IMG/VR virus record: IMGVR_UViG_3300001528_000259 | Span: 32,001-96,000 of that record | Length of the DNA stretch: 64,000 nucleotides | Reading direction: 5' to 3' (one strand) | DNA from: a virus | Lineage: Duplodnaviria; Caudoviricetes | In this document: positions 27,539-31,973 of the stretch, piece after piece | Position numbering within the stretch: the stretch's first letter is position 1 | Layout of the letters: every line of letters begins with the position of its first letter | Notes under the pieces: generated by a model | Seen by the model: only the letters and a program-made list of their open reading frames with translations | What the model was told of the DNA's origin: nothing | Databases searched by the model: none | Position numbers and translations under genes: made by a program

Positions 27539-28099
27539 ATGGAAGAACAAAAATATTTCTATAATTCAATAATAGTAAAATTGGTTTGCGTAATTATATT
27601 TCTCATAATAATCATAATCGCAATTCCAAAGAAACCAGAAACGATTGAGACTATCAAAGAAATTGAAAAAGAAGTTATAGTTGAGGTTCAAAAAGAGCCA
27701 ACCTATGCATACAATATAACATCCGCAGAGCGTGAAATGCTTGCAAGATTAGTATATCGTGAAGCAAACACAGAAAGTCTTGAATGTCAAATGGCAGTTG
27801 TGTCGGTCGTAATCAACAGATGGCAAGATCAAAGATGGGGAGGCACTATAGAAGAAGTTATATATTCGCCTTATCAATTTACGCCTGCAAATTTACTATA
27901 TCAAACAACACCAACAGAATTAAACTACACAGCAGTAGATTTAGTACTGCAAAATGGTTCAATCTTGCCACCATATTGTTTATATTTTCGAGCCGATAAG
28001 CACTTCGACTGGATAGATTATGAACCATATACACAAATAGACTACACTTGTTTCGGTTATGTTCAAGAGGATGTGGAAAAATGCAAAAAAGATCTATAA
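27539..28099 (+). CDS. SleB/CwlJ-like cell wall hydrolase with N-terminal membrane anchor
   Basis: Hydrophobic N-terminus; LARLVYREA, AVVSVVINR, YQF and LYF motifs. Confidence 0.88.
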   Translation: MEEQKYFYNSIIVKLVCVIIFLIIIIIAIPKKPETIETIKEIEKEVIVEVQKEPTYAYNITSAEREMLARLVYREANTESLECQMAVVSVVINRWQDQRWGGTIEEVIYSPYQFTPANLLYQTTPTELNYTAVDLVLQNGSILPPYCLYFRADKHFDWIDYEPYTQIDYTCFGYVQEDVEKCKKDL

Positions 28100-28266
28100 C
28101 TATTTCGGTTCCACCGACTACAACTTCAGAAGAAATTGCAAAAATCAGAGAACAATTCAAACAGGACGAAACTATGAAAGACTGCCGACTGAATATATTA
28201 ATTAGCGGCAACGAAAAATTTCAAGAAAATTTATATAATTTTGTAAAGACTATGGTAAATCCATAG
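28081..28266 (+). CDS. Small hypothetical protein upstream of the recombinase (possible directionality factor)
   Basis: 61-aa ORF. The function guess rests on position only. Confidence 0.5.
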   Translation: MQKRSITISVPPTTTSEEIAKIREQFKQDETMKDCRLNILISGNEKFQENLYNFVKTMVNP

Positions 28267-28278
28267 TCTTTTATGCTA

Positions 28279-28310
28279 CAATAATGTTATAAGAAAAAAC
28301 AATAATGTTA
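28279..28310 (+). repeat. Direct repeat CAATAATGTTA x2 (21-bp period) in the recombinase promoter/RBS region
   Basis: Copies at 28279-28289 and 28300-28310; the first overlaps TGcTACAAT (extended -10). Confidence 0.75.
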
Positions 28311-28327
28311 AAAAAGGAGAACGCATT

Positions 28328-30352
28328 ATGATAGAAAATAAAATTGTTGTAGCATACCTAAGACTATCCGTTGATGACGGAGATGATAAAGAAAGTTCAA
28401 GTATTAGTAATCAAAGAAAGATTATTGAACAATATGCTAAAGAAAATGGACTAATTATATCTAAATTTTATATAGATGACGGGTATAGTGGATATAAAAT
28501 GGAAAGACCTGCCTTTGACCAATTAAGATATGATTTAAATCATGATAAAGTAGATGTAATAATTGTAAAAGATTTATCAAGACTTGGAAGACATAGCGCC
28601 AAAGTGCAATTATTCTTAGAAAATATATATAATGTAGGAAAAAGAATTATTACTATTGGAGATAATTACGATACAGATAAAGAAGAAACTCATTCAATGG
28701 CGGGTATTTACGCTTGGGTAAATGAAATGCAAGTTAAAAACACGTCAAGAAAAGTTAGAGATAGTTTGCACGCATTACAAAGAGAAGGTAAATTACTTTG
28801 TAATGTTCCTTACGGATATTATAAAGATGATAAAGATAAAACAAAGTGTCACGTCGATTATACTATCGCTCCATATGTACAACAAATCTTTGATATGTAT
28901 GCTAATGGAATGGGCGTTAAAGAAATAGCTAGAGTGTTATCTGAAAGCAACATACCAACGCCAACTATGGTTAAAAAACAAAGACAAGAGACAGAAGGTC
29001 AAATAAGTAAAATAAAAGTAAGTGGCATTTGGGACACTAGTGTTATTATCAAGATATTAAAAAATGAATTCTACCTTGGGACATTGGTGCTTAACAAAAC
29101 AAAAACAAGGTCAATTAGAGGGAAAAAAGTTAACACAGATCCCGAAGAACATTTAAAATTCGAGGATCATCATGAAGCAATTATAGATGCACAAACGTTT
29201 AAGTTGGTACAAGATCTTAGAACAAGTCGAAGATGCAATCATTTCAGAGGAAAGAAAAGTAAGGTAAGGAAAAACTTATTCGCAGGAATAATCTATTGTG
29301 CAGATTGTGGAGCACTTTTGACTACATCGGGAGCAACAGCGAATACGAGATACATATGCAAAACATATAATGTTTTTGGCACAAGCAAATGTACTAATCA
29401 CGCTATTATGGAAAACGACATATTAGAAGTTCTGTTTGACTTGCTGAAAGATTGTAGAGACAACTTGCAAGATGTCTTAGTCGATATAAATAATATCATT
29501 CATGCAGAACTTAAAGCAAGGGGTAAGAAAGAAAACAATGAGCTTGACCTTGTTAAAATGTTAGACAATAGTAAAAAAGCATTAGAAGTTCTGATCGAGA
29601 TGAAAATGAAAGAAATTGTAAAGAACCCGACAATGGCAGATATTATCGATAAAACGTACAATGAAATGCAAAACGAAAAGTATAAAGAAATTAGAATGCT
29701 GGAACAACAAATTGCAGATCAACAAGATATAGACATAGACGAAAAGCAATTAAAGGATGATGTTAATGCAGCCCTGACTATCATCAATAAAGTATTAACA
29801 AGTGGAGAGATTACGAAAAAGCAAATATTAATGTTAGTAGATAGATTAGTTGTGTATGAAGACAGTGGAATTGATATATACTTAAAAGGAAACTTACACG
29901 AATTAAGCCAAAATTATTTCAAAGTTAATGAAACAGCAATGAATAAAACGAAAATGTATTTATATGAATATATAGCAAATCATCAAAACAAGTTCACTAA
30001 AGACGAATGTACATTATATGTAAAAGATAAAGGGGTTAAGACTAATTATAAGATTATATCTCGTATAATCAATGAAGAACTTGGTAATATGGTTGAATTA
30101 AGAGAAATGAGGCATGGATATAGGCTAACCGCACCATTACAAGACGTTGAGCGTGTACTGCTTGGTAACATTGTCGTAGGTGCAGAGAAATGTCTGTACT
30201 CCAATAATGTTAAATATGGAAAGCGTATGGAATCTATCGACAATATCGTTAGTAGAAAGAAGAGATTGCCACTCAACAATGTTACATTTGCATTACTTAC
30301 AAAAATCAGCGATTGGACACAAGGATTACAACCACAAAACAACAGATTTTAA
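28328..30352 (+). CDS. Large serine recombinase (resolvase, recombinase and zinc-ribbon domains) with extended C-terminus
   Basis: YLRLS, DDGYSG..RP, KDLSRLGR, PYGY, NEFYLG, HEAII and CADCG..RYIC..C motifs. Confidence 0.93.
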   Translation: MIENKIVVAYLRLSVDDGDDKESSSISNQRKIIEQYAKENGLIISKFYIDDGYSGYKMERPAFDQLRYDLNHDKVDVIIVKDLSRLGRHSAKVQLFLENIYNVGKRIITIGDNYDTDKEETHSMAGIYAWVNEMQVKNTSRKVRDSLHALQREGKLLCNVPYGYYKDDKDKTKCHVDYTIAPYVQQIFDMYANGMGVKEIARVLSESNIPTPTMVKKQRQETEGQISKIKVSGIWDTSVIIKILKNEFYLGTLVLNKTKTRSIRGKKVNTDPEEHLKFEDHHEAIIDAQTFKLVQDLRTSRRCNHFRGKKSKVRKNLFAGIIYCADCGALLTTSGATANTRYICKTYNVFGTSKCTNHAIMENDILEVLFDLLKDCRDNLQDVLVDINNIIHAELKARGKKENNELDLVKMLDNSKKALEVLIEMKMKEIVKNPTMADIIDKTYNEMQNEKYKEIRMLEQQIADQQDIDIDEKQLKDDVNAALTIINKVLTSGEITKKQILMLVDRLVVYEDSGIDIYLKGNLHELSQNYFKVNETAMNKTKMYLYEYIANHQNKFTKDECTLYVKDKGVKTNYKIISRIINEELGNMVELREMRHGYRLTAPLQDVERVLLGNIVVGAEKCLYSNNVKYGKRMESIDNIVSRKKRLPLNNVTFALLTKISDWTQGLQPQNNRF

Positions 30353-30354
30353 AC

Positions 30355-30379
30355 GGAGCCGCAAGGCTCTTTTCTTTTT
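30355..30379 (+). terminator. Intrinsic terminator ending the left arm
   Basis: GGAGCC-GCAA-GGCTCT followed by a T tract. Confidence 0.8.
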
Positions 30380-30383
30380 GTGC

Positions 30384-30418
30384 AAAAAAATAAGAGCCAC
30401 CATATTTGGTGACTCTTA
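30384..30418 (-). terminator. Intrinsic terminator, minus strand
   Basis: TAAGAGTCACC...GGTGGCTCTTA followed by T8 on the minus strand. Confidence 0.75.
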
Positions 30419-30421
30419 CTA

Positions 30422-30557
30422 TTACCCATTTAATAACCCCATCAGCAAGTCCCTTGGGTTTGTAGGGGCAACTTGCTCTCTCGTAAACGAAAGCCCTTTT
30501 AGTGGCTCTAATGGTGTCATATCTTGAATGAAGTTGCCGCTATTTATATTCTTGACA
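30422..30557 (-). pseudogene. Orphan 3' fragment resembling a TubZ C-terminus
   Basis: Ends PTNPRDLLMGLLNG*, versus PVTSSRDLLMQFMK* in TubZ; has its own terminator and no RBS. Confidence 0.45.
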
Positions 30558-30611
30558 GTTTGCCAGAAAATTATTCTCGAATGATATAATTTTTGGAATA
30601 ATGAAAAACAC

Positions 30612-30643
30612 AAAAAAATAGAACACCAAGTGGTGTTCTATTT
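30612..30643 (-). terminator. Intrinsic terminator after tubZ
   Basis: AGAACACC-ACTT-GGTGTTCT hairpin followed by a T tract on the minus strand. Confidence 0.8.
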
Positions 30644-31666
30644 CATAAATTGCATCAACAAGTCTCTGCTACTTGTTACGGGCGTTTGAGTGTTTGTTGC
30701 TTGCGTAGGCATAATTGTGTTTAATGCATTAAATGTAATTGAATTCTTAGTTAACAAATTTTCTTTAACAATCTTAGACATACTATTAACTTTATCTTCG
30801 AACCTTTTGATACGTTGAGCTGGCAATTGCAGTCCTGTCAGAATAGCCACCGTAGTTGCCTCAGAATAGCCGATAAAAGTGTCATATGGCACACCAAATT
30901 CTTTCTCTAAGGAAGTAGTTAGGAAAGATTTGTTTGAGGTGGAAATGCCCAAGTACATTAAAGTTTTGGACTCTATATCGGCATATATTCCGTTTCTAAG
31001 ACCACTTATAACATCAGTAACCGTACTCTTGTTTTTGCTTTGCTTGGATAGCACAGCGACTCCTGGAGTAGATAAAAGCGTCTTAATTTCACTCTTATCC
31101 AAATTTCCCATTTGACTGCAGTTATTAATATTTATAAACGCATCCATATCTCTAACAAATTTGTTGTTGATACTGAACTTATCTTCATATTTAGAATTAT
31201 CTAATAGAAACGTTGCACCAAGTCCTTGGATGTTGTTTAACTCAGCAAACGCATTGTAGGCGTTCTCGCAGCTTCGTATGGACTCTTTTGTGTCATCCGG
31301 CATAACTAATGCCATAATAACATTTCGTCCATTCTGAGCCAAGTATGAGGCTATAAAAGTACTTAACCCAGAGCCCGTACCGCCACCCAATGACGAACAT
31401 ATCAAAATATATTTTTCTTTAAGAATAGAAGTGATGTTTTCTATAATTTCATCAATAGATTGTGCGGCAAGTCGTAATATTGCCTGCCTGTCTTTCGATG
31501 CCCCTTCACCGTTTCTAATATGGATGCGATGCTTTGCATTTTTAATTGAATTGAGATCTTCGATAGAACTATTAACATATGCCACATTATATCCAAGTTC
31601 CTCAAATCCATGCGCTATGTTAGAGCCTGCCGCTCCAAGTCCTAAAACTGATATCTGTTCTTTCAT
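30638..31666 (-). CDS. tubZ: Tubulin/FtsZ-family GTPase (TubZ/PhuZ-like)
   Basis: LGLGAAGSNI, GASKDR, SLGGGTGSG (tubulin signature), LDN and NLDKSE motifs. Confidence 0.88.
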   Translation of the reverse strand: MKEQISVLGLGAAGSNIAHGFEELGYNVAYVNSSIEDLNSIKNAKHRIHIRNGEGASKDRQAILRLAAQSIDEIIENITSILKEKYILICSSLGGGTGSGLSTFIASYLAQNGRNVIMALVMPDDTKESIRSCENAYNAFAELNNIQGLGATFLLDNSKYEDKFSINNKFVRDMDAFININNCSQMGNLDKSEIKTLLSTPGVAVLSKQSKNKSTVTDVISGLRNGIYADIESKTLMYLGISTSNKSFLTTSLEKEFGVPYDTFIGYSEATTVAILTGLQLPAQRIKRFEDKVNSMSKIVKENLLTKNSITFNALNTIMPTQATNTQTPVTSSRDLLMQFMK

Positions 31667-31667
31667 A

Positions 31668-31919
31668 TTATTGTACCTCCTTCAAAAGCGCAATCCCTAA
31701 TTGTGTGATATAGTGAGTGTTGAATTTGCCATCTTTAATACCTTGTGCAATATAACCGCCGTGGTTTAAAAAACTAATCGCTCTATGCAGAGTAGCATAG
31801 CTTTTCCCAAGCGGACAAAAACGCTCAATTTCCTCATTTGTAATTGCGGTAGCAATTGATGTCGCCTGTGACTTTCCTAAAATTGACAATAAAATCAAAT
31901 GTGTTCTGTTAAGTTCCAT
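31668..31919 (-). CDS. Winged-helix DNA-binding protein (TubR-like)
   Basis: HTH SYATLHRAISFL with wing GYIAQGIKDG..HYIT..G; directly upstream of tubZ. Confidence 0.7.
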   Translation of the reverse strand: MELNRTHLILLSILGKSQATSIATAITNEEIERFCPLGKSYATLHRAISFLNHGGYIAQGIKDGKFNTHYITQLGIALLKEVQ

Positions 31920-31973
31920 TATATTCTCTCCCCTTCTTTCAATTGTAATCAATTGTGTTCAAAATCTATCCTA

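Follow-up and report, generated by a model that had tools for sequence, protein, structure and literature searches.

A repeated word at the promoter and in the 3' coding end of a phage large serine recombinase gene: a candidate crossover site and operator

The DNA studied here is a 64,000-nucleotide stretch of a tailed-phage genome (IMG/VR record IMGVR_UViG_3300001528_000259; bases 32001-96000 of the 138,724-bp record), hereafter the window, and the element in question is the gene of a 674-residue large serine recombinase (LSR; 28328-30352, plus strand), which carries the same 11-bp word at its promoter and in its 3' coding end. Judged from the sequences of the window and of its relatives, this word is a genuine signal in the DNA that belongs to the recombinase gene and is conserved with lineage-specific letters. 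The sites, their restriction to the locus, their co-variation across lineages, the selection on the nucleotides and the agreement in position with phage SPbeta can all be read directly in these sequences. The explanation that we favour is that the 3' site would be the crossover site of the LSR, embedded in its own open reading frame (ORF), and that the promoter copies would form an autoregulatory operator; we consider the chances of this explanation to be about evenly balanced.

The recombinase and the repeated word

The product of the 674-codon ORF is a large serine recombinase. Pfam recognised the Resolvase (PF00239, E 6e-29), Recombinase (PF07508, E 9e-24) and Zn_ribbon_recom (PF13408, E 2e-10) domains, the protein matched PHROG 95 (integrase), and the Y-x-R-x-S catalytic motif is present; in an alignment of 34 homologues the residues Y10, L11, R12, L13 and S14 as well as the zinc-ribbon cysteines C324, C327, C344 and C355 were invariant. 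The AlphaFold model contains a long coiled coil (helices 362-432 and 434-466) and its best Foldseek matches were cryo-electron microscopy structures of serine integrase-att complexes (top match 9dxh, E 1e-20); we take 9dxh and the similar entries to be the SPbeta set of PMC11722253. The nearest named relatives were found in plasmids, namely TndX and proteins with DUF4368, a domain that Pfam did not find in the LSR itself. Towards the C-terminus, a helix-helix-helix-strand-strand domain (residues 534-600) was modelled with a predicted local distance difference test score (pLDDT) of about 80 and the last helix (654-666) with about 75. Codons 613-652 (30164-30283, plus strand), which code for both of the 3' modules described below, correspond to a low-confidence linker (pLDDT 27-33, that is below 50, in residues 614-650), and they are followed by a conserved C-terminal tail with the helix (30287-30349, plus strand), where W663 and F674 are invariant. 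A conserved motif within such a linker would be the expected product of a constraint acting on the DNA.

The first of the two 3' sites, T1, occupies 30166-30212 and reads TAACATTGTCG-TAGG-TGCAGAG-AAATG-TCTGTAC-TC-CAATAATGTTA. It is a 47-bp imperfect palindrome centred on 30187-30192, with outer arms complementary at 9 of 11 positions and inner arms (GTGCAGA/TCTGTAC) lying half a base pair off the outer dyad. An attP site is expected to be an imperfect inverted repeat about 40-55 bp long and no more than about 500 bp away from the LSR gene; T1 has this size and lies inside the gene, and is thus a candidate crossover site of the attP type. The second, T2 (30241-30284), reads CAATATCGTTA-N22-CAACAATGTTA and is a diverged tandem copy of T1, forming a second module. 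A preliminary description of this DNA, of which every coordinate and sequence proved correct when the window was read again, had proposed such a tandem second site. Its relationship to T1 holds, but T2 is not essential, since it is missing in most relatives, which carry one, two or three modules.

At the other end of the gene an extended -10 element (TGCTACAAT, 28275-28283, plus strand) could be read from the sequence; it was not listed by the promoter consensus scan because it has no -35 match. It overlaps the first promoter copy of the word, U1, an exact CAATAATGTTA at 28279-28289 (plus strand). The second exact copy, U2 (28300-28310, plus strand), lies in the 5' untranslated region just before the Shine-Dalgarno sequence AGGAG (28315-28319), so the repetition of the 11-mer over the promoter and the ribosome-binding region, 21 bp apart, is as had been described. 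A third copy, U3, reads CAACAATTTTA on the minus strand within codons 4-8 (28339-28349). U2 and U3 together make a 52-bp dyad (28299-28350), and a 19-nt inverted repeat pairs 28272-28290 with 28338-28356. An eight-codon upstream ORF (28305-28331) begins at an ATG within U2 and its TGA overlaps the LSR start codon (ATGA); it is not kept in the relatives and was rejected as a functional element.

The exact word CAATAATGTTA occurs three times in the 138,724-bp genome (28279, 28300 and 30202), and all three copies are at the LSR gene. The same is true of all four copies of the looser form CAAYAATGTTA, the fourth of which starts at 30274. A Markov model predicts 0.33 copies of the 11-mer per genome, and the probability of finding two more copies within 2 kb of one is about 5e-5. 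The word is nearly palindromic (TAACAWTGTTA), AACAATGTT and AACATTGTT being reverse complements of each other, and therefore Asn-Asn-Val and Asn-Ile-Val are one DNA word read on either strand. This symmetry accounts for the peptide repeat GNIVV...SNNV / DNIVS...LNNV as a by-product of the DNA.

Two other assignments of the word were considered and rejected. The dispersed repressor box of the phage, ACAAAATGATT, has no copy within one mismatch at the locus, so that the word is not a variant of this box. As a possible partner site, a cluster at genome positions 104,792-104,863 (72792-72863 on the scale of the window) was inspected, where five degenerate words, each two mismatches from TAACAWTGTTA, fall in 72 bp, in the 3' end of a minus-strand ORF and in front of the ORF that follows. 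This region is AT-rich, the cluster lies within the range of shuffled sequences, and we read it as chance.

The word and its layout in related phages

No phage was found by megablast, and the tblastn matches in phages and plasmids reached at most 38% identity, none of them covering residues 555-674. In a large protein collection more than 120 full-length LSR homologues were found at 45-89% identity, many of them on contigs of 130-170 kb; the family has at least 128 members, found in ENA, Logan and JGI assemblies on phage contigs that reach about 170 kb. The comparisons at the DNA level cover relatives at 36-54% identity from IMG/VR, metagenomes and species genomes, which are given here by our labels (L or P with a number). 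Every aligned member has the C-terminal module, LL-x-N-[IN]-[VID]-x6-9-[CW]-L-x-x-N-N, followed by the conserved tail. Most members have one module, the clade of the window has two and P0003 has three.

In a promoter-to-gene test, the 75 nt 5' of the start codon were compared with the whole gene of about 2 kb on both strands. The best match was 11/11 and landed in the C-terminal module in the window, in L002/L162, in L009 and in L010/L012, and it was 10/11 in L082 and L164. At least five lineages, at 39-54% identity, thus have their best match in the same module, each with its own word; the words differ between lineages (CAATAATGTTA, AACAACAATGA, GTTACAATGTT and TAACAATGATA). By an estimate from base composition, an exact 11-mer would land in this target of about 60 nt by chance in about 0.5% of cases per lineage. 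Weaker, gapped matches with other words were seen in L083/L171, L172 and L247. Palindromes of 45-55 bp stand at the homologous place in L162 (outer arms 11/12), L009, L164, L082, L177 and L010. That a motif is shared by the promoter and the 3' coding end, as the preliminary description claimed, is therefore borne out, the relatives keeping the layout with words of their own.

The coding of the module points to selection on the DNA. Its two arms are reverse complements and yet specify unlike peptides (DIVVG vs CNNND), and in the L009 lineage the peptide is altered to GNVIN...HNIVT while the dyad is kept. The Asn-Asn pair of the right arm is written AAC-AAT at 9 of 10 sites, compared with 16 of 59 such pairs (27%) elsewhere in the same genes (binomial P about 6e-5, a value that ignores shared descent).

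At the promoters of the relatives one copy overlaps or abuts the extended -10 element, TGnTA[CT]AAT, a TTGACT -35 being visible in L009 and L013, and a second copy with lineage-specific letters follows 21-31 bp downstream, right before the Shine-Dalgarno sequence. In L002/L162 the -10 element is TATAAT and the words flank it as a palindrome of 46-49 bp with outer arms matching at 12 of 12 positions and, as at their 3' site, an arm spacing of 31, so that a -10 box alone does not describe the upstream copy. The two sites of L162, at the promoter and at the 3' end, are palindromes of 47-49 bp that share their arms and this spacing. L002 and L162 have unlike upstream centres, which show no inner symmetry. 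At the 3' site the window has GAAATG in the centre, L162 and L002 have ACCA-GA-TGGT, and the other lineages share no common centre; GA is the target (crossover) dinucleotide of the related recombinase TndX (PMC4430133). Since the upstream centre is not conserved and the 3' centre of L162 and L002 is ACCA-GA-TGGT, we read the upstream site as probably binding-only and the 3' site as the better candidate for crossover. The proposal that the recombinase regulates its own gene through the same motif agrees, as far as position can tell, with these copies: U1-U3 cover the -10 element, the 5' untranslated region and the start codon, as an operator would.

The site compared with known systems, and the alternatives

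In SPbeta the genes sprB (plus strand) and sprA (minus strand) converge on attP, and the 52-bp attP ends 5 bp after the stop codon of sprA (PMC5499854). The phage of the window has a genome of the SPbeta-like type, its two gene arms meet convergently near 30.4 kb, and the LSR ORF is the last gene of the left arm. An att-like site had been supposed at this junction, and T1 indeed lies where the related SPbeta has its proven attP. The two systems share the LSR at the point of convergence, an imperfect palindrome of about 50 bp at its 3' end, an ORF of about 60 codons beside it and, as the best structural matches of the LSR model, the integrase-att complexes presumed to be the SPbeta set; in L247 the order small ORF -> site <- LSR is that of sprB -> attP <- sprA. 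On the other hand, the LSR is only 26% identical to SprA over 281 residues and is longer (674 vs 545 residues), its C-terminal part adding a domain, a linker and a helix. In the window the site falls within the ORF, 140-190 bp ahead of the stop codon, copies of the arm word stand on the gene's own promoter, which is not the case in SPbeta, the small ORF is unlike SprB, and genes of the tubZ and tubR type are adjacent.

In the relatives the LSR stop codon and the end of the convergent tubZ gene are separated by 65-85 bp, all of it terminators, which leaves no room for a separate att site. The alternative attP at 30563-30596 that the preliminary description had considered falls within a relic of an old tubZ 3' end and is no conserved intergenic site. 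The position seems to be one where recombinase cassettes are swapped. In L262 the slot beside tubZ holds a different, ordinary LSR of 501 residues (L262:5601-7150; 22% identity), and a 46-bp inverted repeat, GTTTACTTT...AAAGTAAAC, abuts its stop codon; a gap of about 300 bp with no listed ORF stands where the relatives have the small upstream ORF. In L247 (4224-7797) and L254 the entire cassette, that is the promoter region, the gene and T, is inverted between the same arms, with tubR-tubZ on one side and the small ORF, the dUTPase gene and the ribonucleotide reductase (nrd) genes on the other, and 4 bp separate the stop codons of the LSR gene and the small ORF. Both the promoter region and the tail are part of the inverted cassette, which puts its breakpoints beyond U and T, and recombination between U and T as a way of inverting or excising the gene was rejected.

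An attP inside the integrase ORF is known from intP of the Myxococcus phage Mx8 (PMC6070905) and from the 'suicidal' integrases of the archaeal SSV type (PMC7253208); integration gives intP a new 3' end in Mx8 (PMC6070905) and splits the gene in SSV (PMC7253208). The present site likewise lies within the coding sequence of its own recombinase, as in the switch that had been proposed. Those enzymes, however, are tyrosine recombinases acting on core-homology sites, whereas here only serine recombinase domains and a dyad site are found; moreover, 126 of 128 genes are intact, one of 128 is cut at the centre of the site, and the integrated form was not found among the genomes compared.

In the explanation that we favour, the repeated word would be the recombinase's own recognition word, and the recombinase itself would be the binder. 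T1 (30166-30212) would be the crossover site, the counterpart of the SPbeta attP at the arm junction, with the reading frame running through it, and the DNA of the site would dictate the peptide NIV...NNV of the disordered linker, leaving about 28-55 further codons with the conserved helix beyond it. Strands would be exchanged at T and not at U, presumably with a host attB as partner, and integration would replace the tail. The promoter copies (28279, 28300 and 28339) would be a non-recombining operator, where the bound enzyme would lower its own synthesis by occupying the -10 element, the transcript start and the ribosome-binding region. By analogy, this scheme is a combination of known kinds, namely an LSR with an adjacent attP, an attP inside the integrase gene (Mx8, SSV) and the autoregulation of resolvases. 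Its most specific form, in which integration at the centre of T proceeds in the gene's own frame and the C-terminal helix of the prophage LSR is replaced by host residues, is in our judgement doubtful.

Large serine integrases are widely used tools of genome engineering and their sites normally lie outside the gene. If the scheme is true, a DNA site can dictate a protein segment (NIV/NNV in a disordered linker), serine integrases may have a natural dose control from an att-like operator, the promoter copy acting as a decoy that sets the dose, and there may be a coupling between the C-terminus of the enzyme and the state of recombination. The enzyme would then be a self-editing serine integrase, differing in activity, stability or directionality between the free and the integrated phage, and a serine counterpart of the Mx8 IntP/IntX pair and of integration-dependent immunity. 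The family also offers matched pairs of enzyme and word from several lineages for the study of DNA reading.

Some observations on the DNA and the proteins are compatible with exchange at the site. The number of modules varies among close relatives, which we count in favour of exchange. Three IMG/VR contigs from three samples, L250, L260 and L261, stop at one and the same base immediately beyond the right arm of T. Between the phages L250 and L260 identity is 71% in the final 267 aligned columns of tubZ and complete (123 of 123 positions) from the LSR terminator through the tail to the outer edge of T. On these sequences the contigs end at a boundary located at the site, which reflects either mosaicism or a branch of the assembly; when IMG/VR was scanned for exact words from both sides of this end, no alternative junction appeared. 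The singleton P0032, known from the protein only, follows the family to ...GTSR and then ends with SRSD-stop, at the Arg-Trp codons of the site centre, and a C-terminal search centred on it found no second truncated case. A further cluster, P0030 (521 residues; 21 member sequences, 10 contigs), stops at about residue 520 (...GVDIIP), short of the last domain and the site; it could be a shorter natural form or an interrupted gene, for instance by an intron as in the tape-measure gene of this phage.

A number of results weigh against the favoured explanation. The matches examined, from phages, plasmids, IMG/VR, metagenomes and GTDB species genomes, contained no attB, attL, attR, host flank, split form or lysogen, and hence the prophage junctions near T that were to be looked for in host genomes and metagenomes did not appear there. 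Two relatives turned up in 185,579 species genomes (L082 and L083), and both are intact genes on phage-like contigs. The proposed swap of the last 50 or so residues as a switch is unproven: 126 of 128 homologues keep the C-terminal tail, and P0032 is the lone case (1 of 128) ending at the site centre. The base at which the three contigs stop is on the outer edge of T, off its centre. The lineages L013, L014 and L165 have no clear T word. In SPbeta, taken as a control, no copy of an attP arm was found in the sprA promoter, which leaves self-repression through an att-like operator with no checkable precedent. The adjacency of tubZ and tubR may mean extrachromosomal life, for which an integrase would be unneeded. 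Finally, this AT-rich genome has about 3.4 palindromes per kb that are as good as T1 (arms of 11 nt with 9 or more complementary positions, start spacing 30-42), a density that puts T1 by itself within chance, and words with up to two mismatches are not enriched genome-wide (114 seen vs 108 expected). The palindrome is no proof by itself, and the argument is built on the confinement of the word to the locus and on the comparison with relatives.

These last counts would suit an explanation in which the two ends of the gene share no function and an Asn-rich tandem peptide repeat, a -10-like box and chance in AT-rich DNA together produce the pattern. U1 does coincide with the -10 hexamer TACAAT, and the 27-nt extended match of 28300-28326 with 30202-30228 (22/27) is marginal, being equalled against the gene by 3% of random genomic 101-mers. 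We disfavour this explanation as very unlikely, however, since exact 11-mers recur at the same two places in four independent lineages with differing words, the Asn-Asn codons are biased, the arms are complementary despite their unlike peptides, the TATAAT of L002/L162 is flanked by words as a 12/12 inverted repeat, and the repeat is kept across the family although it codes for a disordered linker.

It is rather unlikely, although less so, that the enzyme serves multimer resolution or phage-phage exchange in a plasmid-like prophage with TubZ/TubR, with T as a res-like site and U as accessory or regulatory sites. Recombination of identical copies would restore the gene, and thus a site inside the ORF would be free of cost and the tail would never be lost, which fits the essentially complete set of intact homologues and the absence of an integrated form among the matches. 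The tubZ and tubR genes converge on the LSR gene in nearly all relatives and would be compatible with a role in resolution or maintenance, several candidate binding words are present (three at U, four at T), and there is the mosaic boundary at T between two phages. A site over the enzyme's own promoter is, moreover, the rule for serine resolvases: the res sites of Tn3/gamma-delta, Sin and beta overlap the resolvase promoter and bring about autoregulation, and in Tn4451 the promoter of TnpX forms across the joint of the circular form. The present gene resembles these systems in the candidate recombinase sites over its promoter, in having TndX as a near plasmid relative and in the central GA of L162/L002; it differs in that the promoter site has no conserved centre, L002 and L162 themselves being unlike there, and in that a better crossover candidate stands at the other end of the gene. 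A typical res system has an enzyme of about 180-200 residues, two identical sites and accessory subsites, while here the LSR has 674 residues, its fold and domains are those of an integrase-type LSR with a long coiled coil, and the extra modules are dispensable. Integrase-type LSRs are not known to recombine two identical sites, which also counts against a resolution role. The slot beside tubZ holds an ordinary 501-residue LSR in L262, and the SPbeta-like genome type is integrative (PMC5499854). Should the LSR nevertheless belong to a resolution system next to TubZ/TubR, an integrase-type enzyme would here have been put to an unusual use, the maintenance of a prophage.

The words might also be bound by another factor, such as the 61-residue protein encoded next to the LSR gene or a host regulator, or act by RNA pairing, and in this way control the expression of the LSR; we hold this to be unlikely. 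The small ORF is always adjacent, U2 and 28339-28349 are complementary at 10 of 11 positions around the ribosome-binding site, and the RNA fold of 30155-30295 pairs 30165-30174 with 30276-30285 (z = -2.3; 6 of 200 shuffles as good). The predicted mRNA fold of 30165-30285 also forms the inner GUGCAGA/UCUGUAC hairpin. Against this, the z-score is weak and no Rfam match was found, for which reasons an RNA element was rejected; the pairing of U2 with the codons is not kept in relatives, and in L010 and L002 the copies are identical and not complementary. The AlphaFold model of the small protein (beta-alpha-beta-alpha, mean pLDDT 81) has no classical DNA-binding fold and gave zero PDB matches at E <= 0.001, in L247 the small ORF is at the 3' end of the gene, far from the promoter site, and a dyad of about 47 bp generally fits an LSR dimer better than a small regulator.

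Genes around the recombinase

On the 5' side of the LSR gene lie anaerobic ribonucleotide reductase genes, a dUTPase gene, a cell-wall hydrolase gene and, directly upstream, the conserved 61-codon ORF (28081-28266, plus strand), whose homologues adjoin the recombinase gene in at least 14 related loci. By this synteny the small protein is a candidate directionality factor or cofactor and may be a cofactor; a role as a classical DNA-binding protein is unsupported by its model, and so is homology to SprB, as BLASTP against the SPbeta protein showed no similarity.

On the 3' side, after the intrinsic terminator of the LSR gene (30355-30370, plus strand), the tubZ-like and tubR-like genes are encoded on the opposite strand. 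The tubulin gene (tubZ-like, 30638-31666, minus strand), convergent with the LSR gene and conserved as a neighbour in the relatives, matches the Pfam families Tubulin (PF00091, E 1e-15) and TubZ_C_3 (E 6e-10). Upstream of it lies a small regulator gene (tubR-like, 31668-31952, minus strand) with a weak PHROG transcriptional regulator match and weak winged-helix matches only, its adjacency being kept in the relatives. The pair has the composition of a TubZRC system, a TubZ GTPase with a small tubR gene upstream, and is conserved as a pair.

The 3' end of tubZ has been replaced. Past the stop codon at 30638 the same frame continues, and here the ancestral C-terminal tail survives as an intact relic (about 30425-30568, in the region 30422-30640, minus strand), sharing 83% identity with the TubZ tail found in L165 and L014. 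Each of the two tails has its own terminator, at 30615-30644 and, behind the relic, an intrinsic terminator at 30389-30420 (minus strand), and both finish in RDLLM-like motifs.

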